A stretch of 64,000 nucleotides of DNA from Candidatus Anoxymicrobiaceae bacterium (GCA_036845225.1 DAIUEJ010000007.1:6578-70577); one strand, 5' to 3'; numbered from the stretch's first letter, positions 17,974 through 42,125 are shown. The notes: generated from the letters alone by a model not told the origin. Translations and numbers: made by a program.

Positions 17974-18040
17974 GCCGAGGGCCTGTGAGCCCGTGGTGAA
18001 GAAGAGCGTGAGTTTCTCGTCGACAGCCCGCAGGTCCCTT

Positions 18041-18553: not shown

Positions 18554-18621
18554 TTGTTCATCGCGCCTCGGGTATAGAACTGTCGCGAATCATCATACCC
18601 GAACCGGGCGCGTCCACTGAT

Positions 18622-18742
18622 GCCGGCGGGACGCCGGCGCTACGGACGTAGAGCAGGAGGCCACATGCCGGCGGGACGCCGGCGCTACGAACACGCGGCG
18701 GGACGCCGGCGCTACGAAAGGATAGCGGGACGCCGGCGATAC
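18622..18742. repeat. GTAG-type REP array, 4 copies
   Basis: GCCGGCGGGACGCCGGCGCTAC at 18622 and 18667, and shortened or variant copies at 18695 and 18725. Confidence 0.85.
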
Positions 18743-18801
18743 GGACGTAGCCGTTGCTGATAGAATGCCCGTGTTGAAAGCGGCAAGCGGAGGATGCTTC
18801 G

Positions 18802-19824
18802 ATGAAAGCTCTCGTCTACAACGCGCCTGAGGACTTCGCGGTCAAGGACCTCCCGGTCCCGGAGGTGAGCCCGGACCATGTCCTGCTACGCGTGAAAGCG
18901 TGCGGGATATGCAAGACGGACGTCCATATCCACCATGGCAGGTTCATCGCCGAGTTCCCTTTGACCCCCGGTCACGAGTTCGCGGGTGAGGTGGCTGAAG
19001 TCGGCTCGGAGGTCACAGCTTTCAAGGCCGGAGACCGGGTTACCGCGGACAACGCCGTCCCCTGCGGGTACTGCTACTACTGCCGCAGGAACAAGCCGCT
19101 TTACTGCGAGAACTTCTACTCACTCGGCTGCAACGGCCCTGGCGGGTTCGCGGAATACGTGACGGTCAGGCACGATAAGGTCTTTCACCTGCCGGAACGG
19201 CTGACTTACGAAGAGGCGGTCTTCGCCGAACCGACAGCGTGCGTGGTCCACTGCATGGACGTTGTGGACGTGCAGGCCGGCGACGAGGCGCTGCTGTTCG
19301 GAGCCGGGCCCGCGGGCCTGCTCCTTGCCCAGATGATCAAGCACTGCGGAGCTTCCAGGCTCACCGTCGCCGCTCCGACAGCGTCGAAACTCGATGTCGC
19401 CGCCGAGCTCGCTGCCGACAACACGGTGCAGATCGGCAGGTCGGACCTGGCCTCGGCTGCCGCCGAAATCTTCGAGCCCGCCCCGAAAGGATACGATATC
19501 GTCTTCGACGCGACCGGCTCGGCCGGCGTGACCGGGCAGTGCGTACAGTTTTCCAGGAAAGGCGGGAAGGTCGTCGTTTTCGGCGTTCCCGACGAAGACG
19601 AGACGACAGAGATCAGCCCCTATGAGATATACAGGAACGAGATCAGGCTGATCGGCTCTTTCGCCCAGACGCACTGCTTCGACCGCGCCCTTGCTTTCCT
19701 GGAAAGCGGCGCCGTGCAGGTTAAGCAACTTGTAACCCACACCTTTCCCCTGGAGGATTACGCTGAGGCGCTTGAGGTCCTGTCCGGCGACAGGAACGCG
19801 CTCAAGATCGTGATAAAGCCCTGA
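18802..19824 (+). CDS. Zinc-dependent alcohol/polyol dehydrogenase
   Basis: CGICKTD, GHEFAG, CGYCYYC...C, and FGAGPAG. Confidence 0.92.
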   Translation: MKALVYNAPEDFAVKDLPVPEVSPDHVLLRVKACGICKTDVHIHHGRFIAEFPLTPGHEFAGEVAEVGSEVTAFKAGDRVTADNAVPCGYCYYCRRNKPLYCENFYSLGCNGPGGFAEYVTVRHDKVFHLPERLTYEEAVFAEPTACVVHCMDVVDVQAGDEALLFGAGPAGLLLAQMIKHCGASRLTVAAPTASKLDVAAELAADNTVQIGRSDLASAAAEIFEPAPKGYDIVFDATGSAGVTGQCVQFSRKGGKVVVFGVPDEDETTEISPYEIYRNEIRLIGSFAQTHCFDRALAFLESGAVQVKQLVTHTFPLEDYAEALEVLSGDRNALKIVIKP

Positions 19825-23589: not shown

Positions 23590-23966
23590 TTCAATCCCCC
23601 CAACAGTCACGACAACTACCGATTGCGGCACATCCATCATTCGGCGCGGGGCCGGGCAATCCTGCGATGGCGCCGCAGGGGGGAAACCTTGACGTCCGTC
23701 ATGGAGCGACGATTTGCGCGCGGGTAGTATGCCGGTATGGAAAGAACGAGAAGGTGTACCAGATCACACGACGTAGACGGCCAGAAAAAGAATCTTCTCG
23801 TGAAGTAGGAGTCCGGATTTACAGGGTGAATAAAGCCCCAGAAGTAGAACCCGCGAACGCTAGAGACGACACCTGAGCAGACTTGTAGGCCAAGGTTTGC
23901 CGCTAGCGCTACGCAGGTCCGGTAAGTCAGGCACGTTTGTGCCAGGTTCAAAGGAGTTGGTTTTCC

Positions 23967-26900: not shown

Positions 26901-29195
26901 GGCGAAGTCGCCATGGTGCCCGCGGTTCCCAACAACGGCCTGCCGGCCAGCTGGCCGACAGACGGCCGTGACGGAGGCGTGCCTGACCCGGCCTCGAGCG
27001 GACCGGCCATGGTGCAGATCGGCAACGAAGGGGGCTTCCTCCCGCAGGCGGCCGTACTGCCCAACACGCCGGTAGGATACATCTATAACCGCAGGGACAT
27101 CACGGTCCTGAACGTGTCCAACAAGACGCTGATGCTGGGGCCGGCCGAGAGGGCCGACGTCATCATCGACTTCTCCAAGATCCCCGACGGCACCAAGCTC
27201 ATCATGTACAACGACGCTCCGGCTCCGGTACCGGCGTTCGACCCGCGCATCGACTACTACACGGGCGGACCGGACCTGACCTCTTCAGGTGGAGCGCCCA
27301 CCACGCTTCCGGGCTACGGCCCGAACACGAGGACGGTCATGCAATTCCAGGTGTCCTCGAGCGTGAAGACCGGGATGACGGGATTCAACGTGAACACGCT
27401 GATGAACCACCTGCCGGCAGCCTACGCGACGTACCAGGAGAAGCCGATAGTGCCGAACGCGGCCTACAACGCGGCGTTTAACGCGGCCTACCCTGCCGAT
27501 TCCTACTCGAGGATCCAGGACACCACGAAGGACTTCTTCAATGGCCCGCTTGCCGGCCTTGCCGTGACGAACATGGGAAGCGGCTATACCTCGGCACCGG
27601 GAGTCAACATCACCGGAGGCGGAGGGACGGGCGCTACAGGAGTGTCCGAGATATCGGGTGTCACATCGATTGCGATAACCAACGGGGGGAGCGGCTATAC
27701 CGTTCCTCCGGACATCGGCTTCACTGGCGGAGGAGGCGGTTCGGGAGCCGCGGCTACCGCGCTGATCTCGGGTGTCACGGGATTCACCATTACGAACTTT
27801 GGAACGGGCTATACCTCGCCTCCTGATGTCACAATCACTGGCGGAGGCGGGTCGGGGGCCACCGCGGTCGCTACCGTGGCGAACGGGTCAATCACGGCTG
27901 TCAACCTCACGAACGGCGGCAGCGGTTACTCGACGCCACCGACCGTCACGTTCACAGGCGGGGGTATCGGCCCCAACGGCGCCGCCGCAACCGCCAATAT
28001 CGCGGTCGGCTCGGTTACGGGGATCATCATCACCGACTCGGGCGGCAACTACACGGTCGCGCCCGGTGTGGCCTTCTCCGGGGGCGGCGGCGGTATAAAC
28101 GCGGCCGCGAATGCGTCGATAACGGTGGGCGCGGTCACCTGGGTGAAACTCACCAACCCGGGCAACAACTACTCCTCGGCGCCAACTGTGGCGCTGTCCG
28201 GAGGAGGAGGCGCCAATGCCACGGCGGTAGCGTTGCCGATCCACATGGACCTGACGCCGAAGGCGATCCAGGAGCTGTTCGATCCGTTCTACGGGCGGAT
28301 GAACGCTCAGTTGGGTGTCGAAATACCCAACACTACGATGATCACGCAGACGACTATCCCATACTTCGATACCGATCCCCCGACGGAGCTCATCAAGAAC
28401 TCCGACGCGGCGCAGCCTATCGGCTCGCTGGCGGACGGGACCCAGATCTGGAAGATCACACATAACGGTGTGGACACGCACGCCATCCACTGGCACATGT
28501 TCAACGTCCAGTTGATCAACCGCGTCGGATGGGACGGAATGGTGAAACCGCCGGACGCGAACGAAGTCGGTTGGAAAGAGACCGTGCGGATGAACCCGCT
28601 CGAGGACGTGATCGTGGCTCTCAGGCCGATCAAGCCCAACATCCCGTGGGACATCCCTAACAGCATACGGTTGCTCGACCCGACGATGCCACTGAACAGC
28701 ACGATTAACTTCACGAGCATGGACCCGGCAGGTCAGCCCGCGCCAGTCCTCAACCACGAGATAAACTACGGCTGGGAGTACGTGTGGCACTGCCACCTGC
28801 TCGGCCACGAGGAGAATCTCATGATGCGCCCGATGTCCTTCGGAGAGGCGCCGATAGCGGCCAGCGGCCTGAGCGGCGCCGGACCGGCGGGCGGAGTCGC
28901 GCTCTCGTGGACCGACAACTCCAAGAACGAGACCAACTGGACGATCATGCGGTCAACGAGTCTGACCGGGCCGTTTGCCAAGATCGACCAGGTGGCATCG
29001 ACAACGGGGCCTGCCACAGGCGGGACGATAAACTACACCGACACCACGGCGGCAGCCGCGACGACTTACTACTACCAGATAATCGCAAACAACATCATCG
29101 GGGATACCACACCTTACACGGCGCCGGTCGTCGGGTATCCGAACATGTCGATGGATGCGACGGCGTCCAACACGGCGACGGTGGTCGTGCCCTGA
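23967..29195 (+). CDS. Very large secreted multicopper oxidase (OmpB/CotA-like) with 4 N-terminal ~111-aa repeats, 6 Gly-rich repeats and a C-terminal FN3-like domain
   Basis: Signal peptide; Cu motifs HLHG (~26088), YHDH (~26280), HAIHWH (~28479), WHCHLLGHEENLM (~28785); LSWTDNSKNET...YYYQI at the C-terminus. Confidence 0.92.
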   Translation: MHHSRKPATRTIAPILAFLLVAAFFLAGAGPIAAKPTPAAPKAQTQPAANPAQSPVRTQDSKRTTAADRQAAADRAQAQGLTPGVAKSGGAVPTPGGVPDYFGPYPNYANSPLPTAIAAFPYPTFYFAEGTTRPNFETYFTIQNPGTKTANVRLTYMRGNGQNAVVTVAVPKNTRSTINPVSTLGSADDAAHDFSTKVESLNKVQVIVERPMYFNYKGVWTGGSDAVGATATASAFYFAEGTCRPNFDAYFTIQNPGNNNAIIQLTYMKGDGTVVTQGFGVTAHTRGTVHPADTLGVGDDAAHDFSTSIVCTNGQKIVAERPQYFNYKGVWTGGHDVVGATAGAKQYYFAEGTSRPNFIPYLTIQNPNAGSVPVKITYFMADGTRKTQNMTLAPHSRSTAIPSDIIGSGDVGHDFSSKVESTNGKNIIVERPMYFNYNNAWTGGSDVMGATASAPAYYFAEGTSRPNFDPYLCILNPGDTVANLTITYMKGNSTTSTQLISVPAFSRGTISIREKTGTGNDAAHDFSIRAECTNGQRVIVERPMYFNYNGVWNGGHDAVGLAYQAVGVQTGTGVRKFVDSLPGLGAANANDLGQYIPVAVPDKTSFPGSDYYEIQLGQYREKLHKDLPSTLLRGYRQTNSSNPSVTKFSYLGPTIIAQKGRPVRVKFTNSLPTGAGGNLFIPVDTTVMGAGMGPDGVNGYTENRAVIHLHGGNTPWISDGTMHQWITPAGETTPYPQGVSVQSVPDMPQPTVGDGTETFYYTNQQSARLMFYHDHAYGITRLNVYAGEAAPYLLQDSTETSLINSKSIPADQIPLVIQDKTFVPAPAQLAAEDPTWDTSKYGGKGNLWFPHVYMPNQNPGSIDGANAMGRWDYGPWFWPPFTGITNGPVANPYYDPVNAPWEPKVIPGTPNPSIVPEGFMDTPLVNGTAYPYVKVGPKAYRFRILNASNDRTLNLQMYFAKSNGQMWKSNGTLTDGDAGEVAMVPAVPNNGLPASWPTDGRDGGVPDPASSGPAMVQIGNEGGFLPQAAVLPNTPVGYIYNRRDITVLNVSNKTLMLGPAERADVIIDFSKIPDGTKLIMYNDAPAPVPAFDPRIDYYTGGPDLTSSGGAPTTLPGYGPNTRTVMQFQVSSSVKTGMTGFNVNTLMNHLPAAYATYQEKPIVPNAAYNAAFNAAYPADSYSRIQDTTKDFFNGPLAGLAVTNMGSGYTSAPGVNITGGGGTGATGVSEISGVTSIAITNGGSGYTVPPDIGFTGGGGGSGAAATALISGVTGFTITNFGTGYTSPPDVTITGGGGSGATAVATVANGSITAVNLTNGGSGYSTPPTVTFTGGGIGPNGAAATANIAVGSVTGIIITDSGGNYTVAPGVAFSGGGGGINAAANASITVGAVTWVKLTNPGNNYSSAPTVALSGGGGANATAVALPIHMDLTPKAIQELFDPFYGRMNAQLGVEIPNTTMITQTTIPYFDTDPPTELIKNSDAAQPIGSLADGTQIWKITHNGVDTHAIHWHMFNVQLINRVGWDGMVKPPDANEVGWKETVRMNPLEDVIVALRPIKPNIPWDIPNSIRLLDPTMPLNSTINFTSMDPAGQPAPVLNHEINYGWEYVWHCHLLGHEENLMMRPMSFGEAPIAASGLSGAGPAGGVALSWTDNSKNETNWTIMRSTSLTGPFAKIDQVASTTGPATGGTINYTDTTAAAATTYYYQIIANNIIGDTTPYTAPVVGYPNMSMDATASNTATVVVP

Positions 29196-30054: not shown

Positions 30055-31110
30055 CTATTTGAGCCCGCGCTCGGCAGAGATCTTCATCTGCATCTCGAGG
30101 AAGTTGGCAGGCGGTGCCGCGGCTTCAGACTTCGCGACGAGCGAGACCGCTTCCACGGGGCACGTCGTCACACAGAGTCCGCAACCGATGCAGCGGGCCG
30201 TGTCGACCTCCATGAAGTCGTCGCCCTCGATGACGGCTTCGATCTGGCAACGCTCGACGCAGGTCGCGCACGCGGTGCACTCCTCGGAGTCGATCCTCGC
30301 CTGGAACGTGGAGCCGGCGTGGTCCGCCGGGCGCTCGTAGGTCCTGAGCGCGCGCAGGTTGCCGCACGAGTCGCCGCAGCAGATGCAGATGTTCATTACC
30401 GCCTGGGAGTTGCTGGGGGAGACGACCATGCCTTCTTTCTCGGCGTTGTCGAGTATCTTGAGGCACTCGTCGAGAGAGATCTCCCGACCGATGCCGTTCT
30501 CGATGTAGTAGTCGGCGGCCATGCCGAAGGTCATGCAATTCTCGAGCGTGTGGTCGCAGCCCTTGCCGACGAGGAGCCTCTCCTTGCGGCATATGCAGTC
30601 CGCGACCGCGATCTTGTCCTGCGCCTTCACGAGTTCGCGGGCGACGTCGTAGGTAGCGACAGTGGTAGAGGTGTCCAGCGCTGCCCCGACCGGTACGACC
30701 CTCAACTGCTTGGTGGGCACGTCTTCCCAGGTTCTGGTGAGGTAAGGCGTGTACTCCTCGAGCAGTTCGGCGAGCTCACGGTCCATGGACCCGACGTGGA
30801 ACTCGTAGATGCCGACGAGGAACTGTTGCGCCATGTAGTATGGCACGCCCTCGATGCGCAGGCGGTAGATGCTGCCCTCGCTGGCCATCTTCTCGAGGCG
30901 GGGCGCCAGTTCGGATTCCTCGGCGCCAATGCGCTCGGCGATGGACGCGACGGACTCGGGCACTCTCTGGAGTTGCAGAACCAGTTCCGCCTCCTCGGGG
31001 GTGAAGTACCTCTGAAGGATCTTGAGCTCGACGCCGGTGTCCGTGGCGGGGAACCCCCCCGGCAGATTGTCGAGGAACACGCGCAGCTTCTGGTAAACGT
31101 CTTCGGCCAT
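30055..31110 (-). CDS. 4Fe-4S dicluster-binding protein with N-terminal winged-helix region
   Basis: GAGGAGG SD before ATG 31110; DCICRK, ICICCGDSC, CTACATCVERC and CIGCGLCVTTCP. Confidence 0.88.
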   Translation of the reverse strand: MAEDVYQKLRVFLDNLPGGFPATDTGVELKILQRYFTPEEAELVLQLQRVPESVASIAERIGAEESELAPRLEKMASEGSIYRLRIEGVPYYMAQQFLVGIYEFHVGSMDRELAELLEEYTPYLTRTWEDVPTKQLRVVPVGAALDTSTTVATYDVARELVKAQDKIAVADCICRKERLLVGKGCDHTLENCMTFGMAADYYIENGIGREISLDECLKILDNAEKEGMVVSPSNSQAVMNICICCGDSCGNLRALRTYERPADHAGSTFQARIDSEECTACATCVERCQIEAVIEGDDFMEVDTARCIGCGLCVTTCPVEAVSLVAKSEAAAPPANFLEMQMKISAERGLK

Positions 31111-31174
31111 GTCGACCTCCTCATGACTGGCGGCTGATGATGCGCAGCCGCTCCAGTACAGTTTACATGAGGGA

Positions 31175-31187
31175 GGGGTCAGGCACC
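31175..31187. repeat. Isolated element core GGGGTCAGGCACC
   Basis: Exact core in the divergent intergenic region; arms degenerate. Confidence 0.7.
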
Positions 31188-31266
31188 GTCCACTATTTTG
31201 TCCACCCTTGACCCCTGTCCTGTAACATGGTGAAGACCTGGTGGCTGTGACTCCGGAGTCGCGTCG

Positions 31267-31618
31267 ATGGACGAAGCAAACGCGATATGCCTCAAAGACA
31301 GAAAGCAGTGGCGCTCGTGGCTGCGGAAGAACCACGCCATCGAACGCGAGATCTGGCTGGTCATCTATAAGAAGAACCACCGGCAAGCCTTCCCTCACGT
31401 ATGAGGAAGCGGTCGAGGAGGCCGTCTGCTTCGGGTGGATCGACGGTCGCATGAAGAGCATCGACGACGAGAAGTATATGCAGCGCTATTCGCCGAGGAC
31501 GGCGAAGAGCACATGGTCGGAGTCCAATATCGCGAGAGCCGAGAAGATGATCGCCGAGGGAAAGATGACGGAGGCAGGACTCAGAGCCTACCGGCAGGGA
31601 GTGAAAGGAGGGGTCTGA
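31267..31618 (+). pseudogene. YdeI/OmpD-associated family gene with a frameshift
   Basis: ATG 31267 frame MDEANAICLKDRKQWRSWLRKNH...EIWLVIYKK stops early; a second frame continues GKPSLTYEEAVEEAVCFGWIDG...FSPR-like; shift at about 31375-31382. Confidence 0.8.
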
Positions 31619-31623: not shown

Positions 31624-31660
31624 CACCCCCACCCCGACCCTCCCCCCTCAAGGGGGAGGG
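31624..31660. repeat. CCCTCCCCC/GGGGGAGGG palindromic repeat
   Basis: 37 nt identical to the reverse complement of 44181-44217. Confidence 0.88.
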
Positions 31661-31769: not shown

Positions 31770-34460
31770 GTGGCAGGTACCTCTATCCGTATAAACGGCA
31801 AAAGGGTTTCAGCCTACCCGGGCTCAAGGATCATCGACCTCGCTTGCGACCTCGGCGTTCCGATTCCAACCTTGTGCGATCACCCGTTGCTTGCGCCCGC
31901 GGGCTACTGCGGAGTCTGCGTTGTCGAGGACATCGCGAGCGGCAGGCTCGTGACCGCGTGCGACACGCCCGCCAGGCCGGGCATGGATATCAGGACCGAC
32001 TCTCCCCGGGCCCTCGAGGCGCGAAGGCGGACTCTCGAGCTCATCCTCACCAACCACCCCGAGACCTGCGTCATCTGCGAGAAAGGAAACGCCTGCAGGC
32101 TCCGCGATCTTTCCTCGAGCATCGGGCTCGCGCTCTCGAGCGAGAAACGCGTCGGGACCCTGCGCGGGATAGTGGACGCGAACCCGTTCATCCACCGCGA
32201 CCTCTCTAAGTGCATAGGCTGCCAGATATGCGTACGCGCCTGCCGGGAGATACAGGGCGCCGAAGCCGTCGAGTTCACGGGGATCGGCACGGGCAGCATG
32301 CCCCTGACGGCGGAGGACCACGAGCTGGCGGGCTCGGATTGCGAGCTGTGCGGGCTCTGCGTCACCATGTGCCCTGTCGGCGCCCTGATCGAAAAGCCGA
32401 GCAAGCACACCGGTACTGAGGACAGGAGGGCGAACGTCATCTGCCCGTACTGCGGGGTCGGATGCACCCTCGAGCTGAGGATCCGTGAGGACGCGATAGT
32501 CAGCGTGGGAGCGGGCGTCGAGGGCTCGGTCAACGGCCCGAGCCTGTGTGCCAAGGGCAGATACGGGCTGGGTTACGTCGGACACCCCGACCGGCTGAAG
32601 GTGCCCCTGGTACGCGAAGGCGACGAGCTCGTCGAGACGACGTGGGAGGAAGCACTGTCGCGCGTGGCGGCGAACCTGCATCGCATGGTCAAGGATCACG
32701 GCCCCGACTCTGTAGGCGTGCTGGCGTCGGCAAAAGCGACCAACGAGGAGAACTACCTCATCCAGAAATTCGCCCGCGCCTGCATCGGCACCAACAACGT
32801 CGACCACTGCGCGAGGTTGTGACACAGCCCCACCGTCGCCGGTCTGGCGGCAGCGTTCGGCAGCGGAGCCATGACCAATTCGCTCGAGGACCTTGCGGAC
32901 GCCGACGTCATCCTGCTCACAGGTAGCAACACCATCGAGAACCATCCCGTCATCGCGCAGATGATCAAGACCGCTGTCCTGTCGGGCGGCACCCGGCTCA
33001 TCGTGAGCGACCCGAGGGACATCTCGATGGCACGATACGCCGAGGTGAGGCTCAGCCCGAGGCCCGGAACGGACGTCGCATGGCTCAACGGGATGGCCAA
33101 CGTGATATTGAGCGAGGGGCTGGCCGACGAGCGCTTCATACGGGAGCGCACCGAGGGCTCCGACGGGTGGCGCAAGTCGGTGGAGCGCTATACCCCCGAG
33201 TTCGTGCAGAAGATAACGGGCATCAAGCCCGCGGACTTACGAAAGGCGGCTCGCCTCTACGCGTCGGCCGGCGCGGCCGCGATCTACTACGCCATGGGCA
33301 TCACCCAGCACTCGACGGGCACCGATAACGTCAAGGCGATCGCAAACCTCGCGATGCTCACGGGCAACATCGGCAGGCCGGGCACGGGAGTCAACCCGTT
33401 GCGCGGCCAGAACAACGTGCAGGGCGCCTGCGATATGGGCGCGCTGCCCAACGTCTTCCCCGGCTACCAGCGGGTCGACGATGACGTGGTCCGGGGCAAG
33501 TTTGAGAAAGCCTGGGGCGTGAAGCTCCCCTCGAAGCCGGGGCTCACCGTAACCGAGATGATTGGTGCCGCCGCCAAGGGCAAGCTCAAGGCAATGTACA
33601 TCGTCGGAGAGAACCCGGTGCTGACCGAGCCGGACGCAAACCATGCCGTCGCGGCTCTCGGAAAGCTCGACTTCCTCGTCGTCCAGGACATATTCCTCAC
33701 CGAAACGGCGGCTCTCGCCGACGTTGTGCTGCCCGGTGCGGCCTCGGTTGAAAAGGAAGGGACCTTCACCAACACGGAGCGCATGGTCCAGAGGTCGCGC
33801 GCGGCCGTGCCCGCTCCCGGAGAGGCGCGCAGCGATGCCGACATAATCTGCGCCGTCGCGGGCCAGATGAAGTGCGCCATGACCTGCGGCAGTCCCTCGG
33901 ACGTCATGGACGAGATAGCTTCTCTCACGCCTTCGTACGGCGGCATGTCTCACAGCCGGCTTGCGCGGCACGGCATGCGCTGGCCGTGCCCTGATGCAAA
34001 GCACCGCGGCACAAGGATAATGCACTCGCGCGAGTTCACCCGCGGCAAGGGCAGGTTCCATCCCATCGACTACATCGAGCCGGCAGAGATGCCGGACGTC
34101 GATTACCCGTTGATCCTGACCACGGGCAGGATGCTCTACCAGTATCACTCGGGCTCGATGTCGCGCCGCTCGGCCGCGCTGGACGAATACACTCCGGCCG
34201 GCTGGGCTGAGCTGAACCCGAGCGATGCCAGGAGGCTGGGCATACGAGAGGGCGAACCCATCGCTCTGACCTCGCGGAGAGGCTCGGTCCGCACGACCGC
34301 CAGGCTGAGCCGCCGCTCTCCGAAGGGGGTCGTCTTCATGAGCTTCCACTTCGCCGAGGAGGCGGTCAACAAGCTTACGAATCCAGCTCTCGACAAAGAG
34401 GGAAAGATACCTGAGTTCAAGGTCTGCGCGGTCAAGGTCGAGCCTGCCGCGCGCGAGTGA
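31770..34460 (+). CDS. fdhA: Selenocysteine-containing formate dehydrogenase alpha subunit (N-terminal 2Fe-2S/4Fe-4S plus Mo/W-bisPGD domain)
   Basis: In-frame TGA at 32820-32822 in DHCARL-U-HSPTVAGL; the two track ORFs join in frame; CPYCGVGC, RGQNNVQGACDMG and PEFKVCAV motifs. Confidence 0.93.
32823..32856 (+). promoter_or_regulatory. Bacterial SECIS element
   Basis: Hairpin GTCGCC-GGTCT-GGCGGC (32835-32851) 12 nt after the UGA, as in fdhF-type SECIS elements. Confidence 0.85.
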
Positions 34461-36118
34461 GGAGAGGCTTCTTGGATGTACGCGGTCCGGGCAGCGCGCT
34501 GGTCGAGCGGCTGCTCGAGGAGAGCGACAAGAAGGGATTCCTGGACCCCGCCTCCGTGGAGGCGGTGTCCCGCGAGTTCTCGATACCCGCGAGCAGGGCG
34601 TACTCCATCGCGGGACAACTGGAGCATTTCCACTTCGCGCCCACCCCCAAGGGGACGACAAGCGTCTGCGCCGGCCCGGCATGCGAGCTGGCAGGCTCGG
34701 CGGACGTCGCGAGCGCGCTGAAGGCCCTGCCGGGAGCGAACCCGATCCCTTTGCTCGGCAGCCCCATCTGGCACACGCCCGTCCTGGCGATGGTGCCGGG
34801 CAGGAGGGGATCGATGCCCCGCAGGGTGGGAGTAGAGGCGGCATCATCCATGGGCGATCTCCAGAGGTCTCCACTGGCGACAAGCGCGGAACCGGCGAAA
34901 GAGCTGCTTACCGGGAGCGGCGAGCTGCTGGGCGGCCTCAAGCGCCGGCGCTCGGCGGCTGACTACTTCAAGTCGGACGCGCGGCGGTTTGCCAATTTCA
35001 TGGAGCAGAATACGGGCGCGGAAGTCCGGAGCGACATCCGGTCCTCGCGAATCGTGGACACCGCGACCGGGCACGAGATCGCGGACATCATCGAGACGCT
35101 GGGGCGCTCCGAGGTGGCCGAGAGGATGGTCGTGTGCGACGCGGGCGGCCGGGAGCCGGAGAACGACGCCGCGCCGGTCCTCGCGTGGATCGACCCGATG
35201 GGCGTGGTCGAAGGGATGCTCCTCGCCGCGCACGCCTCGGGAGCCGGGCGCGCACTGCTATTTGTGCCGCACGAGCACGCCGGGCTCAGGGAGTCGTTCG
35301 CCAGGGCCTTGCGGGACCTCGAGAGCGAGAGCCTCTGGCCCGCGGTCGAGGTCGGGATGTTTTCCGGGCCTAACTTCGTGCCGACCGACCGCGAGATCGG
35401 GATTGCCTCGCTGTACGGCGGGCTGACCCTGAGCGAGGGAGCGACCCGCGCCTCCGAATCTCGCGCGCGGCTCTGGGGCGCTCACGTTCTGATGTCCGAC
35501 CCGGAGGCTTTCCTGAGGCTCTCGCGCAGGGCTTCGGGCGGCCCGAAGGCGACGGCGGCCAGGATCGTGTCGGTCGGGGGACGGGTGAAGGCGCCTTGCG
35601 TCGCCGAAGCCTCTCTCACCGCCACGGTGGGTGAATTCCTCGGCGAGTCCACCGGCGGGTTCCCCGAGGGCAGCGTCGTGAAAGCCCTCCACTTCGGAGG
35701 CGTCTACGGCGGCCCGCTCAGGCCTGTCGCATTGAACTCCAGGCTGCGAAGCCTCTTCGGCCGGCTGGACGGCGGAGGAAGCGGCCAGATACTCGTGATC
35801 GACCGGGACACCTGCATGGTCCGCTGGAGCGAATACTTCTCCTGGCTGGGCGAGCGTCTCTGCTGCGGAGCCTGCGTCACGGGAAGGCTCGGCCCTTCAT
35901 ACGTGAGGCGTCTCATCAGGAAGATCACCGACGGTCGCGGCGAGCTCGCCGACCTCGAGGACATACGGGCCACCATCGAGCTCATGAAGGAGACCGCGCT
36001 CTGTCCGCAGGGCGGCAGGGTGCTGAACCCCGTCCTGGTCTGCCTCGAGAACTTCTCCGGGGAGTTCGAGGAACACATCATCGAAAAGAAATGCCAGGCG
36101 CACGTCTGCTGGCCGTAG
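34457..36118 (+). CDS. Fused NuoE/NuoF (HydC/HydB)-like subunit, degenerate
   Basis: VCAGPAC (NuoE-like), DPMGVVEGML, GGVYGGPL, CCGACVTGR...ALCPQG, and HIIEKKCQAHVC; GTGA overlap with fdhA. Confidence 0.8.
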   Translation: MRRGFLDVRGPGSALVERLLEESDKKGFLDPASVEAVSREFSIPASRAYSIAGQLEHFHFAPTPKGTTSVCAGPACELAGSADVASALKALPGANPIPLLGSPIWHTPVLAMVPGRRGSMPRRVGVEAASSMGDLQRSPLATSAEPAKELLTGSGELLGGLKRRRSAADYFKSDARRFANFMEQNTGAEVRSDIRSSRIVDTATGHEIADIIETLGRSEVAERMVVCDAGGREPENDAAPVLAWIDPMGVVEGMLLAAHASGAGRALLFVPHEHAGLRESFARALRDLESESLWPAVEVGMFSGPNFVPTDREIGIASLYGGLTLSEGATRASESRARLWGAHVLMSDPEAFLRLSRRASGGPKATAARIVSVGGRVKAPCVAEASLTATVGEFLGESTGGFPEGSVVKALHFGGVYGGPLRPVALNSRLRSLFGRLDGGGSGQILVIDRDTCMVRWSEYFSWLGERLCCGACVTGRLGPSYVRRLIRKITDGRGELADLEDIRATIELMKETALCPQGGRVLNPVLVCLENFSGEFEEHIIEKKCQAHVCWP

Positions 36119-36154
36119 CGCCCGATCCGGCGAGTGGAACGCTAAGGAGTTGAG

Positions 36155-36814
36155 ATGAAGAGCATAACGGCTCAGAAGCCTCTCGAGGAACTGCTCGAGA
36201 TCCTGGGCACCGCGAGCAAAGTGTTCATCGCGGGGTGCGGCACCTGCCCGACCCTCATCGGCACGGGCGGCATCGACCAGGTGGCTGACCTCGCCGCTTC
36301 GCTCAAAGAAGCGGGAAAGCGTGTCACCGGGACAGTAGTGCTTCCCGTCGCGTGCGAGCCGCTGCCGTTCGAGGCGCGCCGTGAGTTCCTCGAGGGCACT
36401 TCCAAGGCGGACGCGGTCCTGGTGATGTCCTGCGCCTACGGCGTGCGACAGGTGGCGGACATCGTGGCCGGGCCGACGCTCCCGGCTCTCAACACGCTCT
36501 TCATCGGCCGCGAAGAGGGGCCGGGTGTCTTCGTGGAGGAATGCAGCCAGTGCGGCGATTGCGTACTCGGTCTGACCGCCGGGATCTGCCCGATCACCAG
36601 GTGCGCGAAGAGCCTGTTCAACGGGCCCTGCGGCGGCTCGGTCGCAGGCAAGTGCGAAGTCGACCCGAAGATCCCTTGCGGCTGGCAGATGATCTACGAC
36701 CGGCTCAAGGAGCTGGGCCGCCTCGAGCAGATGGAGGTAATCATCCCCATCAGGGACTGGAGCAAAGGCTGGTCCGGCGGGCCGAGGCGGTACTCGATGA
36801 ACGAGAAGAAATAA
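36155..36814 (+). CDS. metV: Methylene-THF reductase small Fe-S subunit (MetV)
   Basis: GCGTCPT, CSQCGDCVLGLTAGICPITRCAKSLFNGPCGG, KCEV...CGWQ. Confidence 0.88.
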   Translation: MKSITAQKPLEELLEILGTASKVFIAGCGTCPTLIGTGGIDQVADLAASLKEAGKRVTGTVVLPVACEPLPFEARREFLEGTSKADAVLVMSCAYGVRQVADIVAGPTLPALNTLFIGREEGPGVFVEECSQCGDCVLGLTAGICPITRCAKSLFNGPCGGSVAGKCEVDPKIPCGWQMIYDRLKELGRLEQMEVIIPIRDWSKGWSGGPRRYSMNEKK

Positions 36815-36821
36815 GAGGGCC

Positions 36822-38063
36822 ATGCGCTACGAACTGCTCTACGAGATATCCAAGCCGGTCATCGAGGCCGCGGGAGTCAGCAACGTCCTGAGCTCCATTG
36901 TCGAGAGCACCTCGAAGGGGACAGGCGCCAAAGGCTGCTCGCTTCTGACCCTCTCTCCGGACGGCAAGACGCTGGAGCACATGGTGTCCTACGGCCTCAG
37001 CGCAGATTACCTGAGCAAGGGCGAGATCGTGGTCGATGACGCGATCAGGGAGATGCTCGCGGGGCAGCCCATCAACATCGTGAACGTGGCCGACGACCCG
37101 CGCATCCAGTACTCCGAGCAGGCGCTGAAGGAAGGGATCTCGTCGCTCCTCTCGATCCCGGTCCGCGGGACGTCGGGCAACATCATCGGGCTGCTGCGGC
37201 TCTACATGTCCAAGGTGACGAAGTTCAAGCGCGGCGAGACGGACTTCCTCGTCTCGATCGCCGACCTGGGAGGGATAGTCCTCGAGAAAGCCGAGGCCTA
37301 CGACCGCCTGAAGACTGACGTGGATGACGCGAAGTCCGAGATAGAGAAACTCGAAGATGACCGCGAGATGTTTCTGCAGTTCCTCTCCATGGTGGCGCAC
37401 GACCTGAAAGCGCCGGTCGGCGCGGTCGAGAGCTACCTCAAGGTCATGCTGCGGGGCTCGCCGGGCCCCCTGACGGAGAAACAGGAGCGTTGGCTCGAGC
37501 GCAGCATCGTGCGGCTCGACAGCATGCTCGAGCTGATAAGCGACCTGCTGGACGTGTCGCGCCTGGAGACCGGCCAGGTGGCTCCTGAGATGGAGATGAC
37601 CTCGCTCAGGGGCGTCCTGGAGAACTGCGTGGAGACGGCCAGGGGGTTGGCCGACCCCAGGGGCGTCCGCATAATCGCGGACATCGATGGCGATTTCCCC
37701 GCGGTCTACGCGTCGGGGAGGCGCCTGGCGCAGGTCATCAACAACCTGGTATCGAACGCGGTGAGGTATACGCCGGAGGACGGGACCATCGAGATGCGCG
37801 CCGGTCTCGAGGGCGACCACATGCTGGTCGTCGTCGAGGACTCGGGCTCCGGGATCAAGGCCGAGGCGATGCCGAAGATATTTGATGACTTCTTCAGGGG
37901 CGACCACGAGACCGAGGGCACCGGACTGGGGCTGTCGATATGCAAGCGCGTCGTGGAACTTCATGGCGGCAGGATCTGGGCCGAGAGCCCCGTGCCTGGC
38001 AGCACCGACGGCACGAGGTTCTCCTTTACCATTCCTATGAGGCAAGCCGGGAGCGTGGGATAG
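36822..38063 (+). CDS. GAF-domain sensor histidine kinase (soluble)
   Basis: GAF region, VAHDLKAP H-box, NNLVSNA, DSGSG, GTGLGL. Confidence 0.93.
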   Translation: MRYELLYEISKPVIEAAGVSNVLSSIVESTSKGTGAKGCSLLTLSPDGKTLEHMVSYGLSADYLSKGEIVVDDAIREMLAGQPINIVNVADDPRIQYSEQALKEGISSLLSIPVRGTSGNIIGLLRLYMSKVTKFKRGETDFLVSIADLGGIVLEKAEAYDRLKTDVDDAKSEIEKLEDDREMFLQFLSMVAHDLKAPVGAVESYLKVMLRGSPGPLTEKQERWLERSIVRLDSMLELISDLLDVSRLETGQVAPEMEMTSLRGVLENCVETARGLADPRGVRIIADIDGDFPAVYASGRRLAQVINNLVSNAVRYTPEDGTIEMRAGLEGDHMLVVVEDSGSGIKAEAMPKIFDDFFRGDHETEGTGLGLSICKRVVELHGGRIWAESPVPGSTDGTRFSFTIPMRQAGSVG

Positions 38064-38084
38064 ACTCAAAAGGGGTTTATTAAG

Positions 38085-39002
38085 ATGAAAGCCGGGACGA
38101 ATCTGGAGAAAGTGCTCGAGGCGGGCAATTTCGCGGTGACCGCGGAGATCGGCCCCCCCAAGGGCGGGTCGGCAAAGGTGATCGAGTCGAAGGGCGAGAC
38201 GCTGCGGCATGCCGCGGACGCGTTCAACGTGACCGATAACCAGACCGCGGTGGTTCGGATGTCCAGCCTGGCCGCGTGCGGCATCTTGAAGAGCATGGGC
38301 CTGGACCCTGTCATGCAGATGCTCTGCCGCGACCGCAACCGGATCATGCTGCAGGGGGACGTGTGCGGGGCGGTGGCGCTCGGCGTCGGCAACCTCCTGT
38401 GTCTCACTGGCGACCACGTCAAGTTTGGAAACCATCCCGAGGCCAAGGTCGTGTTCGATATCGACTCGGTGCAGCTCATCCAGGCGGTCAAGACCATGCG
38501 CGACGAGGGCAAGTTCATAAGCGGCGAGGAGATCGCGGGGCCGATCCCGATGTTCATCGGCGCGGTCGAGAACCCGTACGCGGACCCCTTCGAGTTCCGC
38601 ACGGCGAGGCTCGACAAGAAGGTCAGGGCCGGCGCCGACTTCATCCAGACGCAGGCGGTGTACGACGTCGGAAAGTTCGCTAAGTGGATGGACGAGATCT
38701 GCGCAGCGGGTATCGATCAGCGGACTCACATTCTCGCCGGAATCATCCCGGTGAAGGCCGTCGGCATGGCTCGCTACATGAGGGACTACGTCTCGGGCGT
38801 CGAGATCCCCGATTCGATGATCAAGAGACTGGAGAAGTCAAAGGACGTCAGGGAAGAAGGGATTCAGGTCATCCTCGATATAATAGAAGAGGTCAAGCTG
38901 ATACCCGGTGTGCACGGAATACATATCCAGGCCGTCGGTTGGGAGGATATCGTCCCCGAGATCGTAGAGCGGGCGGGCCTGCTACCGAGACCGATGCTTT
39001 AG
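38085..39002 (+). CDS. metF: Methylenetetrahydrofolate reductase
   Basis: VTAEIGPPKG, NVTDNQ, CRDRNRI, LCLTGDH, GADFIQTQ, GIHIQA. Confidence 0.92.
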   Translation: MKAGTNLEKVLEAGNFAVTAEIGPPKGGSAKVIESKGETLRHAADAFNVTDNQTAVVRMSSLAACGILKSMGLDPVMQMLCRDRNRIMLQGDVCGAVALGVGNLLCLTGDHVKFGNHPEAKVVFDIDSVQLIQAVKTMRDEGKFISGEEIAGPIPMFIGAVENPYADPFEFRTARLDKKVRAGADFIQTQAVYDVGKFAKWMDEICAAGIDQRTHILAGIIPVKAVGMARYMRDYVSGVEIPDSMIKRLEKSKDVREEGIQVILDIIEEVKLIPGVHGIHIQAVGWEDIVPEIVERAGLLPRPML

Positions 39003-39015
39003 GGAGGGGAGCAAA

Positions 39016-39420
39016 TTGGCAGCGAAGATACTGGTCGTTGACGACGATCCCGACATCAGGGACGTGCTCGAGGAGTTGCTGGTGGGCGAGGGGTACGAAG
39101 TGGTGACGGCCAACGACGGCGTCCAGGGGCTAGCGGCGATCAAGAAAGAGAATCCCGACATGATGATCCTGGACCTGCTGATGCCTCAGTTGGACGGGTT
39201 CGGCGTGTGCAAGCAGTTGCAGGACCCTCGCTGGTCGAAGTGGAAGGGCATGCCCATCCTCATCCTGACCTCGGTCCGCGAGGAGGTCAGCCAGAGGCGC
39301 TACGAGCTCGAGACCGGCTTGAGCCTGGACGTCGACGACTACGTCGAGAAGCCGATAGATCCCGACGTGGTGCTGGAACGGGTCAAGAACCTGCTGGCTC
39401 GCAAAGGCATTGATGTATAA
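39016..39420 (+). CDS. Single-domain response regulator
   Basis: ILVVDDD, ILDLLMPQLDG, LTS, YVEKP; no output domain. Confidence 0.92.
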   Translation: MAAKILVVDDDPDIRDVLEELLVGEGYEVVTANDGVQGLAAIKKENPDMMILDLLMPQLDGFGVCKQLQDPRWSKWKGMPILILTSVREEVSQRRYELETGLSLDVDDYVEKPIDPDVVLERVKNLLARKGIDV

Positions 39421-39459
39421 TAGGAATCCGTTCAATACGGGCTAGAGCAGGAGGATGGA

Positions 39460-39834
39460 ATGAAGAAAGTACTTCTGGTTGATGACGACAAGGACTTCGT
39501 AGAGTCCACGAAAGCTGTGCTCGAGGAGAAATACGAGGTAATCGTGGCCTACGACGGCGACGAGGGAATCAAGACCGCCAAGGCCGAGATGCCCGACCTC
39601 ATCATCCTGGACGTGATAATGCCTACGGAAGACGGCTTCAGTGCAGCAGAGGAGATGAAGAACGATCCCGACATCTCCATGATCCCGATAATAATGCTGA
39701 CCAGCTTCTCGACGCGCGGGGTCGAGACGAACATCCCGCGGAGCAAGGGCATGGACCTCCAGTCCGAGGACTACATAGAGAAGCCGGTCGAGCCGGACGT
39801 CCTGCTCGCGCACGCGGAGAAGCTGCTCAGCTAG
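39460..39834 (+). CDS. Single-domain response regulator
   Basis: VLLVDDD, ILDVIMP, LTS, YIEKP. Confidence 0.92.
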   Translation: MKKVLLVDDDKDFVESTKAVLEEKYEVIVAYDGDEGIKTAKAEMPDLIILDVIMPTEDGFSAAEEMKNDPDISMIPIIMLTSFSTRGVETNIPRSKGMDLQSEDYIEKPVEPDVLLAHAEKLLS

Positions 39835-39885: not shown

Positions 39886-40602
39886 CTAGACCAGCACCTC
39901 GTACTCAGTGATTTTCAGAGGTTCTCCAAGAAGAGTCGTGCCTGTGCGCATGAAGTTGTGGAAGAGGCCGTCAAAGATCGCCTTGGCCTCGTCGTGCAGG
40001 TAATAGATCGGCACCGCCGGGTTCACATCATCGTAGAAGAACCCCGTCAGGATCCCACCGCGCGGGTAATCCAGCCGGGCCCCGTGTATCTCGTGCAGCG
40101 CCGGAAGGTCCAGGTGCTCGAAGAGCTGCATGAAGGAACGCTTGATGGTGCTCACCCCGCCGCACAGGCCCGCCTTGAACCCGTAATCGATAAGGGCTGA
40201 GATCATCGTCGTGGAGACGAAGTGGCGCGGTAGCGGGTTGTCTCCGGGTCGTTTGATGGCGGTGAGGCGGCTCACCTCGCGGACGCCCTCGCGAGGGCAA
40301 GGGGCAAGCTGAGTCGGCGTCTCGAACTCGTAGTAGACCGATTCGGTCGGGAGCTCCTCGGAATCGATGAGACGAGCGGCGGCAAGCAGCGCTCCGTTCG
40401 CGTACGTGCCGAAGTAGATACTGGCCAGGTCGTATTCGTCGTCGAATATCGCCAGGTCGCCTGGGATGTACCCGCGGCGCTGGTACTCATTCTTGATGAG
40501 GTCCTTGACCTCGCGAAGCTCGCCCTCTTTCGCGACCAGGCCGGAGACTATCTCGATATGCTCGCCGCGATACTCAATGCCGAGCCTCTTAACGGGTTCC
40601 AT
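39886..40602 (-). CDS. N-acyl amino acid synthase (FeeM)/AHL-synthase-like GNAT-fold protein
   Basis: EYQRRGYI...FDDEYD...YFG...AAARLI and EVSRLT, a LuxI/FeeM-like pattern. Confidence 0.62.
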   Translation of the reverse strand: MEPVKRLGIEYRGEHIEIVSGLVAKEGELREVKDLIKNEYQRRGYIPGDLAIFDDEYDLASIYFGTYANGALLAAARLIDSEELPTESVYYEFETPTQLAPCPREGVREVSRLTAIKRPGDNPLPRHFVSTTMISALIDYGFKAGLCGGVSTIKRSFMQLFEHLDLPALHEIHGARLDYPRGGILTGFFYDDVNPAVPIYYLHDEAKAIFDGLFHNFMRTGTTLLGEPLKITEYEVLV

Positions 40603-40649: not shown

Positions 40650-42125
40650 TTACTCCGTCGGCCTCATGTCAACAATGCGCATGGCCTTAAGCGTCACCGT
40701 CGGGTCGAATATCTCGGACATCTCCACGAAATCGATCTTCGCCGTCATCTCCACGGCCTTGCGCATGCGCTCCTGGAGCTCCACCTCGATCTCGCCCTCG
40801 GCGCGCGACGGCATCGCCGCCACCTTGATGATGAGCTCGTCCCCGGAGTACGGGTCGTTCGGATCCTTGGTGGTCAGGACGATCTGGTACTCGGCGACAC
40901 CTGCGGTGTTCGCGATCTCGTCGCGCATGATCTCCGGGTTTATCAGCGTCCCCTTGAGGTTGATGAGCTCGCTGGTGCGGCTCGCGTAGGTGCTGCCGAC
41001 GGCGACCTGCATCCGGACGCTGTTGCGCCCGCAGTGCGGGCACGTCTCGTGCGTGATGGCGGCGAAGTCCCCGATGACATAGCGCAAGAGGACTGTCCCG
41101 GTGCGCACGAGGTGTGTGATGCAGAGCAGTCCCACTTCGCCGTCGGGAACGCGCTCACCGGTCTCCTCGTCCACGACCTCGAAGAAATACGAGCCGGGGT
41201 CGGGCGAGTGGCAGCCCGAGAATTCCTCGCACTCGGACAGGGCTCCCTGCATCTCGGTGAAGCCGTACGAGTTCGAGATGAACGGGCGGTCGGCGCCCAT
41301 GTTCTCGAGCCGCATCCGGATGTCGTCGCGCATGCCCTTCGGCGCGGCCTCACCCAGCAGCTGGCACCCGAGGATGTGCGAATAGTCGCGGCCCTGCTCC
41401 TCCGCCTTCATTATCACCCGGCGCACGAAGCTCCCGATCCCAACCAGGACATCCGCCTCGGTGTACTCGATGAGCTCGATGGCGTAGTCCATGCTTCGGT
41501 GAATGTGGAACTCCTCGTGCGGCATGCCCGTGCAGGCGAACGCGCCCTGCCCCAGCGGCGACATGGTGATGATATCGCGCGCCCGGAAGAACCCGATGTG
41601 AGGGATAGGGCCGAGCGGGAAGAGGTTCACCGTGTGCATGCCTGAGATGGCTCCCCCGATCTTCATAGCCCGGAAGATGAGCTGATAGGTCGCGTAGGCG
41701 TCGTTGATGGTGTTGTAGAAGGGCGTTGGCACGCCAGTCGTGGTGCCGGTAGTGTAGGTGACCTCCCAGAGCCAGTCGTAGAGGGTCGCGTTGGTCAGCT
41801 TCAGCTTGAAAGCCTCAGGGTCTGCCATGTAGTCGCGCTTGTAGGTCAGCGGCAGCGCCTTGAGGTCGTCGACGGTCTGGATCTTCGCCGGGTCGATCTT
41901 CTCTCGCTTGAAGAGCTCCTTGTAGTAGGCGCTGCCGTCGGCGATGCGCTCCATCTCGCGGCGGAGGTTCTTGTTCTGCAGCGCGAGGATATCGTCCTTT
42001 GAGAAGAAGTTAGGGTCGTCTTTGTCCTCGGCGTACAGGGGCTCGCTCGCGATGAACTTCAGGGTGTTCTCGGGAGTGACCTCGAACGCGGTCATCGAGC
42101 CGTCGGGGTTTCGCATCCGGAGCAT
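40650..42125 (-). CDS. Phenylacetate--CoA ligase (PaaK)-like adenylating enzyme
   Basis: LPLTYKRD, YTTGTTTGVP, YGFTE, EVVDEETGE, LRYVIGD, LINLKGTLINP. Confidence 0.85.
   Translation of the reverse strand: MLRMRNPDGSMTAFEVTPENTLKFIASEPLYAEDKDDPNFFSKDDILALQNKNLRREMERIADGSAYYKELFKREKIDPAKIQTVDDLKALPLTYKRDYMADPEAFKLKLTNATLYDWLWEVTYTTGTTTGVPTPFYNTINDAYATYQLIFRAMKIGGAISGMHTVNLFPLGPIPHIGFFRARDIITMSPLGQGAFACTGMPHEEFHIHRSMDYAIELIEYTEADVLVGIGSFVRRVIMKAEEQGRDYSHILGCQLLGEAAPKGMRDDIRMRLENMGADRPFISNSYGFTEMQGALSECEEFSGCHSPDPGSYFFEVVDEETGERVPDGEVGLLCITHLVRTGTVLLRYVIGDFAAITHETCPHCGRNSVRMQVAVGSTYASRTSELINLKGTLINPEIMRDEIANTAGVAEYQIVLTTKDPNDPYSGDELIIKVAAMPSRAEGEIEVELQERMRKAVEMTAKIDFVEMSEIFDPTVTLKAMRIVDMRPTE

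Follow-up and report, generated by a model that had tools for sequence, protein, structure and literature searches.

A stretch of 64,000 nucleotides from a Candidatus Anoxymicrobiaceae bacterium (GCA_036845225.1 DAIUEJ010000007.1:6578-70577; this whole 64 kb stretch is the window below) carries at positions 31770-39834 a run of seven genes that places a selenocysteine (Sec)-type formate dehydrogenase (Fdh) beside a methylene-tetrahydrofolate (THF) reductase of the MetVF type. The genes encode, in order, FdhA, a NuoE-NuoF fusion relic that we call NuoEF*, MetV, a GAF histidine kinase, MetF and two single-domain response regulators, RR1 and RR2 (Table 1), which bears out the content and order that an earlier reading of the window from its sequence alone had given, down to the kinase gene lodged between metV and metF. 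With moderate confidence, we interpret the run as one operon for a formate-driven methylene-THF reductase that works independently of nicotinamide adenine dinucleotide (NAD) and brings its own phosphorelay, a candidate fifth MetVF type. MetVF enzymes need a partner module, RnfC2 or HdrABC-MvhD, and within the described types I-IV the physiological donor of type II is disputed (PMC8760232).

Why would such an operon keep a diaphorase stripped of the motifs for its cofactors? NuoEF* retains the overall diaphorase fold: the top Protein Data Bank matches that Foldseek returns for its AlphaFold2 model (predicted local distance difference test score 78.7; predicted template-modelling (TM) score 0.83) are exclusively HydB, NfnB, FdsB, HoxF and NuoF, with TM scores of 0.72-0.74 against HoxF and the fused FDH1 beta subunit of M. 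extorquens. In alignment with canonical NuoF and HydB proteins, its flavin mononucleotide (FMN) loop SGLRGRGGAGFP has become SRIVDT-ATGHE, the NADH motif GAGAFVCGEETAL has become GPNFVPTDREIGI, LNNVET has become MSDPEA, and the N3 motif SCGKCxPCREG has become CCGACVTGRLG, with an invariant glycine for the third cysteine; where a diaphorase subunit has GRGGAGFP and GxGAYxCGEE, NuoEF* reads VDTATGHE and GPNFVPTDRE instead. A regular-expression check found the FMN and NADH motifs absent from 30 of 30 clade sequences, the more divergent Ca. Solincola-type copies are likewise without them, and every clade member is without GRGGxGF, GxGxxxCGEE and the third N3 cysteine and has CCGxCxxG(R/K) at the site where canonical matches have CGKCxxCR. 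Pfam recognizes PF01257 (partial) and PF10589, the FMN domain PF01512 stays under its cut-off at E=0.0067, and the NCBIfam NuoF model scores 98 bits against a cut-off of 559 bits. The motif losses therefore argue that NAD(P) is not the acceptor by the known mechanism, and with both motifs gone from the NuoF-like part NAD is an unlikely partner, in agreement with the NAD-independent route of the sequence-only reading.

That reading also suggested that electrons may pass along an iron-sulfur (Fe-S) chain, whose course through the NuoEF-like protein now looks doubtful. The N3 region keeps three of its four canonical ligands (CCGACVTG...C516) next to an extra invariant cysteine, Cys469, and so departs from the four-cysteine N3 [4Fe-4S] pattern CGxCxxC...C; the NuoE-like part keeps two of the four [2Fe-2S] cysteines of NuoE and FdsG (C71 and C76); some clade members also have the third, and no member has the fourth. 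His106 is an invariant residue, and the C-terminal ferredoxin domain of HydB-type proteins is missing. NuoEF* may be mainly a scaffold.

Decay is not the explanation, since a pseudogene is ruled out by a GC content at third codon positions (GC3) of 0.87 throughout, an intact frame in all loci and 76 invariant alignment columns in sequences of down to 36% identity; selection maintains the protein. The family is small, with about 20 clusters at 90% identity (E <1e-100, 35-99% identity), and the next matches beyond it are canonical NuoF and HydB proteins at E ~1e-24; an exhaustive profile search added a few further divergent members, giving about 12 representatives at 50% identity. Its most conserved portion is the C-terminal N3 domain, which contacts NuoG in known complexes. 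As to its origin, NuoEF* is 24.5% identical to the canonical NuoF that precedes metV in Dehalococcoidia and 26.5% identical to the other copy, values too close to speak for or against descent from the former.

The Fdh on which this protein would dock is of the FdsA type. The nearest solved chains to FdhA are R. capsulatus FdsA (6tg9), M. extorquens FDH1 alpha (7e5z) and 9wxb, aligned end to end at E ~1e-218, and solved relatives of this type bind a NuoF/NuoE-like diaphorase, whose fold and position NuoEF* shares. Pfam finds Fer2_4, NADH-G_4Fe-4S_3, Fer4_Nqo3, Molybdop_Fe4S4, Molybdopterin (1.4e-86) and Molydop_binding, that is, the molybdopterin and dinucleotide-binding domains behind a NuoG-like N terminus, and in translation the N-terminal ligand patterns are complete (C36/C47/C50/C64, H96-C100-C103-C109, two CxxCxxCxxxC and C224-C227-C231...C259). 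The active-site stretch HCARL-U-HSPTV and NPLRGQNNVQGACD are both present, as in FdsA/FdhF-type enzymes; by the residue roles in E. coli FdhH, the marks of this type are Sec or Cys followed by His at the active site and the conserved Arg of the RGQNNVQG stretch.

The Sec assignment rests on conservation and position. The single in-frame stop of fdhA lies in HCARL-U-HSPTV, and TGA occupies the identical codon in each of the eight related loci whose sequence spans it. Among these loci the 30 nucleotides 3' of TGA are nearly invariant at synonymous sites, and GTCGCCGGTCTGGCGGCAGCGTTCGG is identical there, synonymous positions included, even though the neighbouring NuoEF* is only 41-59% identical across them. 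This stretch contains a hairpin resembling a Sec insertion sequence (SECIS), which begins 15 nt past UGA and folds locally at -10.4 kcal/mol; its loop GGUC falls at nt 22-25 counted from the U of UGA, the distance at which GGUC stands in the SECIS of E. coli fdhF. The 75-nt UGA context folds no better than shuffled sequences (z=0.01), and the argument for a SECIS therefore leans on conservation and position rather than on folding energy; the hairpin sequence, being invariant among loci, offers no covariation. No selA, selB or selD gene lies in the window.

Of the two reductase subunits, MetV has 12 cysteines in translation and no solved structure found by sequence, and MetF matches solved methylene-THF reductases only distantly. 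A PF02219 MetF and a PF12225 Cys-rich MetV are encoded together, as in the MetVF-type enzymes (types II-IV), though the kinase gene separates them.

Table 1. Operon features, with positions in the window, and modules upstream of metV at related loci.
Feature	Location	Strand	Description
fdhA	31770..34460	+	Cytoplasmic Mo/W-bis-pyranopterin guanine dinucleotide Fdh, catalytic subunit, FdsA type; NuoG-like N-terminal Fe-S domain; Sec at TGA 32820-32822
SECIS-like hairpin	32835..32851	+	GUCGCC-GGUCU-GGCGGC
NuoEF*, NuoE-NuoF fusion relic (553 aa)	34457..36118	+	Diaphorase fold without FMN and NADH motifs; signature CCGxCxxG(R/K)
metV	36155..36814	+	Cys-rich small subunit, MetVF-type methylene-THF reductase; PF12225 at 8.2e-38
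GAF-HisKA-HATPase_c histidine kinase	36822..38063	+	Soluble; Pfam GAF, HisKA, HATPase_c
metF	38085..39002	+	Catalytic TIM-barrel subunit of methylene-THF reductase; PF02219 at 2.2e-41
RR1	39016..39420	+	Receiver-only response regulator; PF00072 only
RR2	39460..39834	+	Second receiver-only response regulator; PF00072 only
Module FdhA + NuoEF*	15 scored loci and divergent L013		All Actinomycetota-type, all with GAF kinase
Module NuoG' + NuoE + canonical NuoF	10 loci, L052, at least 4 further loci, L038, L062		Membrane-type kinase in the 10, GAF kinase in L052, no kinase in at least 4; L038 and L062 unresolved
Module NuoE, NuoF/GltD, FdhA	L040, L089, L035, L070		fdhA directly before metV in L040 and L089; NuoF/GltD scored next to metV in L035 and L070
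Module NiFe hydrogenase small and large subunits, HycI, then GltD/FlpD(MvhD) fusion	L066; similar L085, L072		
Second order MetV-MetF-RR-RR-kinase-GltD/FlpD fusion-MetV-MetF	L064, L073, L082, L092		HdrA-like protein upstream in L082

All seven open reading frames lie on the + strand, take up exactly the interval 31770-39834 that the sequence-only reading had given, and follow one another with gaps of -4, 36, 7, 21, 13 and 39 bp from fdhA to RR2, the fdhA stop and the NuoEF* start sharing 4 bp. GC3 is 0.83-0.88 in each of the seven (overall GC ~0.62), and all are therefore coding; every Pfam domain call in them passes its curated cut-off, with PF01512 of NuoEF* as the sole exception. The gene after RR2 (39886-40602) runs in the other direction. 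Between 31000 and 41000, scans for consensus promoters and terminators yielded nothing beyond shuffle expectation and detected no internal terminator on the + strand. A TTGCAT-16-TAACAT pair 5' of fdhA was too weak to claim as a promoter. In the same upstream region, a perfect 9-bp G/C hairpin (CCCTCCCCC-N-GGGGGAGGG, 31638-31660) without a T-tract lies about 110 bp before fdhA, and a short open reading frame (31241-31618, +), YdeI-like by eye at its C terminus, overlaps the 5' end of a minus-strand gene (30055-31461).

The usual partners of MetVF are not at hand. The window contains no hdr, mvh, rnf, fhs, folD or acs gene, and neither it nor the flanks of 15 related loci (L001-L015) contain genes for CCG, FlpD or HdrA-like proteins. 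The rnfC2 gene that adjoins metVF in type III thus has no counterpart, there being no RnfC-like gene in the window, and the hdrABC and mvhD genes of type IV adjoin metVF neither in the window nor in the flanks of those loci. Within the window, the absence of hdr, mvh and rnfC2 supports the sequence-only reading.

The block recurs as a unit. FdhA-NuoEF*-MetV-GAF kinase-MetF-RR-RR was found in every locus fetched through NuoEF* (L001-L011), through MetV (L012, L013, L015) and through MetF in metagenomes (L016, L017, L019, L020), about 20 related loci in total, in which gene order is identical and gene lengths are nearly so; they come from uncultured Actinomycetota, with Ca. Solincola among them. 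The flanks of these loci are mutually unrelated (TetR and flavin adenine dinucleotide oxidases, galactose genes or a ribosomal-protein/rpoA operon), and the seven-gene arrangement is far beyond chance; a break in gene order had been named beforehand as grounds for abandoning the idea, and none appeared. Identities within the clade are 71-79% for FdhA, 66-77% for MetV, 62-77% for the kinase, 80-89% for MetF (the most conserved gene of the block), 82-87% for RR1 and 35-59% for NuoEF*. That order, spacing and the 4-bp fdhA/NuoEF* overlap are kept strictly between unlike flanks, with NuoEF* identity down to 35%, speaks for a single formate-driven unit. The named sources of these loci are all Actinomycetota metagenome-assembled genomes (MAGs), one of them Ca. 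Solincola, class Ca. Geothermincolia, with no cultured organism among those recovered.

The kinase and receivers have the residues expected of a two-component system. In the kinase, the H, N, G1, F and G2 boxes are present, with H193, N308/N312, D340xGxG and G366TGLGLS invariant in 9 orthologues. Both receivers have the acidic pocket, phospho-Asp, Thr/Ser and Lys: D9/D10/D11, D53, S86 and K112 are at least 97% conserved among 60 distinct RR1 orthologues, and D8/D9/D10, D51, T81 and K108 are conserved in all full-length RR2 orthologues. The Thr/Ser-to-Lys spacing of RR1 is about 5 residues above the 22 of CheY. RR1 orthologues also share a near-invariant S92-x-RRYELETG101 in the alpha4 region, which may be an effector-binding face. 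Because neither regulator has an output domain by Pfam, both most likely act through protein binding, on MetVF itself or on an unlinked effector, as the very high conservation of RR1 also suggests. The GAF domain matches generic GAF structures only (cyclic GMP phosphodiesterase, PtsP and unnamed ones), and no ligand can be assigned from them; a role in sensing formate, like that of the GAF domains of FhlA, would be speculative.

To whom do these signalling genes belong? The sequence-only reading had them wired into the Fdh operon, but the wider distribution of the unit ties them to MetVF instead. A Dehalococcoidia locus (L014) has the order NuoE, NuoF/GltD, FdhA(Cys), a 224-aa NuoG-N-terminal-like protein (NuoG'), NuoE, canonical NuoF, MetV, kinase, MetF, RR, RR, and its genes are orthologous to those of the window from MetV onwards, at 56% identity for MetV, 69% for MetF, 67% for RR1, 62% for RR2 and 46% for the catalytic core of the kinase, which carries a multi-pass membrane N terminus in place of GAF. 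The window RR2 is 62% identical to RR2 of this locus but 42% to its RR1, and RR1 pairs with RR1; the two regulators are therefore separate orthologous lines. In the FdhA homologue of the same locus (L014:3907-6642, 49% identity), Cys (HCARLCHAPSV) takes the place that Sec holds in the Actinomycetota copies. The 224-aa protein of this locus shares 41% identity with the window FdhA over residues 6-212 of the latter, and the Actinomycetota version, without a free protein of this kind, has the FdhA N terminus alone. This difference, a free NuoG' with canonical NuoE and NuoF in Chloroflexota and only the FdhA N terminus in Actinomycetota, favours an Fdh-fed enzyme in the latter.

We scored 94 loci whose MetF shares 65% identity or more with the window copy, gathered by three routes and not de-duplicated. 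A kinase gene stands immediately 5' of metF in 72 of them (47 of membrane type, 25 of GAF type) and metV does so in 18. Regulators are present in all 59 kinase-bearing loci with enough downstream sequence, and 11 of 15 loci without the inserted kinase and with enough downstream sequence have none. Upstream of metV the modules differ (Table 1). Fdh lies just upstream of the NuoG'-NuoE-NuoF module in L014, L045, L050 and L074; in L089 (5132-8553), NuoE and a 1024-aa NuoF/GltD fusion come before a Cys-type fdhA whose end reaches 4 bp into the start of metV, with no NuoG' or NuoEF between, and L040 has the same juxtaposition of a Cys-type fdhA with metV. These two loci are independent of the Actinomycetota block and show that Fdh and metV have been linked in other architectures, a further point in favour of formate as donor. 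The loci with hydrogenase genes (L066:700-9987, L085 and L072, probably Chloroflexota), in which a second MetV/MetF-like pair also precedes MetV-GAF kinase-MetF-RR-RR, look like an H2-linked version of the system. With donors as varied as NiFe hydrogenase with GltD/MvhD and an HdrA-like protein upstream, an electron-input enzyme therefore regularly occupies the slot adjoining metV, and such an enzyme is found there in every architecture with enough upstream sequence. Since metV-HK-metF-RR1-RR2 crosses phyla behind several input modules, the two-component unit is best seen as a MetVF regulator older than the Fdh association. In DscP3, a single-cell genome of Chloroflexi, metF_1 of an hdrABC-mvhD-metVF cluster was earlier reported to be flanked by putative phoBR genes (Sewell et al. 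2017, PMC5736913).

From the observed gene content, motif losses, fold, synteny and modularity we infer a physical complex, a direction of electron flow and a target for the regulators. Formate would be oxidized at the Sec/Mo-or-W site of FdhA, and electrons would cross its five Fe-S clusters, including those of the NuoG-like N-terminal domain. NuoEF* would descend from an FdsB/FdsG-type diaphorase of the kind that normally docks on this domain and, having lost flavin and NADH binding, would serve as an adaptor with at most one unusual cluster (CCGxC...C), holding MetV or relaying electrons to it. MetV would pass them to the flavin of MetF, which would reduce methylene-THF to methyl-THF. The GAF kinase and its two receivers, an older unit that would travel with metVF whatever the donor, might then adjust methyl-branch flux to the signal read by the GAF domain. 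Electron transfer from formate at about -430 mV to methylene-THF at about -200 mV is exergonic. The latter value is the one quoted in PMC9586279.

Several points weigh against this proposal. With ligands incomplete for both of its ancestral clusters, NuoEF* may carry no electrons at all, and it evolves fastest in the block (35-59% identity vs 62-89% for the other genes). Direct coupling would dissipate about 44 kJ/mol without an obvious site of conservation. The operon is short of a full methyl-branch cluster, fhs and folD lying nowhere in the window, and the support is wholly in silico, from sequences of uncultured organisms. A Ca. Solincola MAG has been reported with hdrABC, mvhD, hydrogenases and Rnf (PMC12917137), and Hdr/Mvh partners may be encoded elsewhere in these genomes, outside the window. 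Finally, MetVF enzymes accept ferredoxin in vitro (PMC8760232), and a soluble carrier could therefore link two separate enzymes.

This last point leads to the main rival, a possible, if rather unlikely, alternative: FdhA-NuoEF* could be a stand-alone Fdh exchanging electrons with a soluble carrier (ferredoxin or another), MetVF an ordinary ferredoxin-accepting type II enzyme, and the operon a means of co-expressing them under a two-component system. Type II MetVF uses reduced ferredoxin in vitro with no fixed partner (PMC8760232), and metV-HK-metF-RR-RR stands behind many neighbours, with some close MetF relatives encoded in NuoG'EF-metV-metF runs that have no kinase; Fdh linkage is therefore not obligatory for this MetVF lineage. 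Separate enzymes do not, however, account well for the redox input enzyme that recurs beside metV, for the start/stop overlaps of fdhA with NuoEF* (window) and with metV (L089), or for a diaphorase relic without an acceptor site, which is hard to explain in a free-standing Fdh; in addition, an ATP-yield argument has been raised against ferredoxin as the donor in vivo (PMC8760232).

It is improbable that NuoEF* is instead a redox or metabolite sensor which, like sensory hydrogenase relatives, reports the reduction state of FdhA, or a bound ligand, to the GAF kinase. Such a role would suit a protein whose catalytic motifs are gone while its fold and one cysteine motif are kept, and NuoEF* goes with a GAF-type kinase in 15 of 15 scored loci, canonical NuoEF with a membrane-type kinase in 10 of 11. 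This co-occurrence tracks lineage (Actinomycetota vs Chloroflexota), however, and hence cannot count as evidence in its own right; there are GAF kinases in loci that have no NuoEF* (L052, L066), and the NuoEF* gene lies between fdhA and metV rather than next to the kinase gene. Least probable of all, NuoEF* would still work as a diaphorase but bind flavin and NAD(P)H in a non-canonical way, serving both an Fdh linked to NAD(P) and a MetVF dependent on NAD(P)H, much as in type III RnfC2-MetVF: the fold is intact and Chloroflexota relatives have canonical NuoE and NuoF at the same site upstream of metV, but the FMN loop, NADH motif and LNNVET are replaced in every clade member by sequences that are themselves conserved, and the PF01512 and NCBIfam NuoF scores fall below threshold.

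A formate-driven enzyme of the kind we favour would differ from each known system that it resembles. In type III RnfC2-MetV-MetF of Acetobacterium woodii (PMC8760232), likewise a soluble complex, a MetVF core is fed by a dedicated Fe-S input subunit encoded beside metVF; that subunit, however, has an FMN and NADH site, both lost from the NuoF-like protein of the window, where the sole catalytic donor in the operon is Fdh and metV is parted from metF by a kinase gene. Type IV HdrABC-MvhD-MetVF of Moorella thermoacetica (PMC8760232) and the DscP3 cluster (PMC5736913) also tie MetVF to a multi-subunit redox module by gene order, and in DscP3, as in the window, two-component genes flank metF, but the window is without Hdr or MvhD and has Fdh and NuoEF* as its donor module; the remark on phoBR in DscP3 (PMC5736913) does not address conservation, the second regulator or swappable input modules. 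The NAD-dependent FdsABG(D) enzymes (R. capsulatus 6tg9, C. necator 6vw7, M. extorquens FDH1 7vw6) have in FdsA an end-to-end match for FdhA (E ~1e-218) and in FdsB, or the fused FDH1 beta subunit, the fold of NuoEF* (TM score 0.73) at the same operon position; they differ in that NuoEF* is without FMN, NADH and part of the Fe-S ligands, that the window FdhA has Sec rather than Cys, and that metVF genes stand where the remaining fds genes, such as that for FdsD, would follow.

Likeness to the hydrogen-dependent CO2 reductase of A. woodii and T. kivui (7qv7) is one of principle, two catalytic modules being wired through Fe-S proteins without a soluble cofactor; there the partner is a hydrogenase and the connectors are HycB proteins with no homology to NuoEF*, and the likeness is an analogy, not membership. 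The formate-dependent Wood-Ljungdahl pathway of Tepidanaerobacter was rejected as a precedent, as it concerns a missing Fdh and not a link between Fdh and MetVF. The closest relatives are the Chloroflexota NuoG'-NuoE-NuoF-MetV-HK-MetF-RR-RR loci (L014, L041, L050 and others), of which we found no description in the literature searched: MetV, kinase core, MetF, RR1 and RR2 are orthologous and in the same order, whereas the diaphorase is canonical and FMN-bearing, the NuoG-like protein is free, the kinase is membrane-anchored without GAF, and FdhA, when present, is of Cys type with its own NuoE-NuoF/GltD.

Beyond the operon, the window surroundings hold alcohol and aldehyde oxidoreductases, hydrolases, transporters and one further two-component pair. 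Convergent to RR2, the minus-strand gene at 39886-40602 encodes a 238-aa protein with no Pfam or NCBIfam match, which occupies the same position in many related loci (63-74% identity in L001-L005, L009, L010, L016 and L020) and whose L005 homologue weakly matches FeeM, an N-acyl amino acid synthase. It is followed, in the window (40650-42125, -) and likewise in L012, by a gene for an atypical AMP-binding enzyme, and an AMP-binding gene lies upstream of fdhA in L007, L012 and L015; the two proteins may form a small acyl-activating unit linked to the cluster. An alcohol/aldehyde cluster at 13414-19824 has alcohol dehydrogenases of Fe type (14020-15246) and Zn type (18802-19824) on either side of a tungsten-type aldehyde:ferredoxin oxidoreductase (15742-17604), with two small SCP2-domain proteins inside it (13414-13974 and 15281-15703). 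Two long reading frames have little domain annotation: a 1752-aa frame at 23937-29195 (+) has no Pfam domain and, at residues ~620-970, a weak NCBIfam similarity to multicopper oxidases well under the cut-offs, and an 839-aa protein at 49202-51721 (-) has an enolase C-terminal TIM barrel only at residues ~392-585, between long N- and C-terminal extensions without Pfam match.

The electron donor of MetVF is an open bioenergetic problem of the Wood-Ljungdahl pathway, and it decides the net ATP of acetogenesis (PMC8760232). The operon described here is a natural case in point, with formate as the only plausible donor encoded with MetVF and the NAD site erased by evolution. The wider pattern, one conserved MetV-kinase-MetF-RR-RR core behind interchangeable NADH, formate, H2/MvhD or HdrA inputs, makes the donor question testable, and MetVF operons that enclose a two-component system and take interchangeable inputs appear to form a family largely undescribed in the literature searched. 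The operon also points to phosphorylation-based control of a central one-carbon enzyme, of which we found no description in the literature searched. Tentatively, and going further than we would for the operon as such, we speculate that a flavin-less relic of an NADH-dehydrogenase module joins a Sec-Fdh to MetVF in a formate-using fifth type that needs neither pyridine nucleotide nor ferredoxin, and that two phosphorylated, enzyme-binding receivers gate it post-translationally, a switch that a whole group of MetVF enzymes, taking NADH, formate, H2 or Hdr as plug-in donors, would share in uncultured Actinomycetota and Chloroflexota. The lineages concerned are Actinomycetota and Chloroflexota of the subsurface and of sediments, and formate has been proposed as an important substrate of deep-sea Chloroflexi (PMC5736913).

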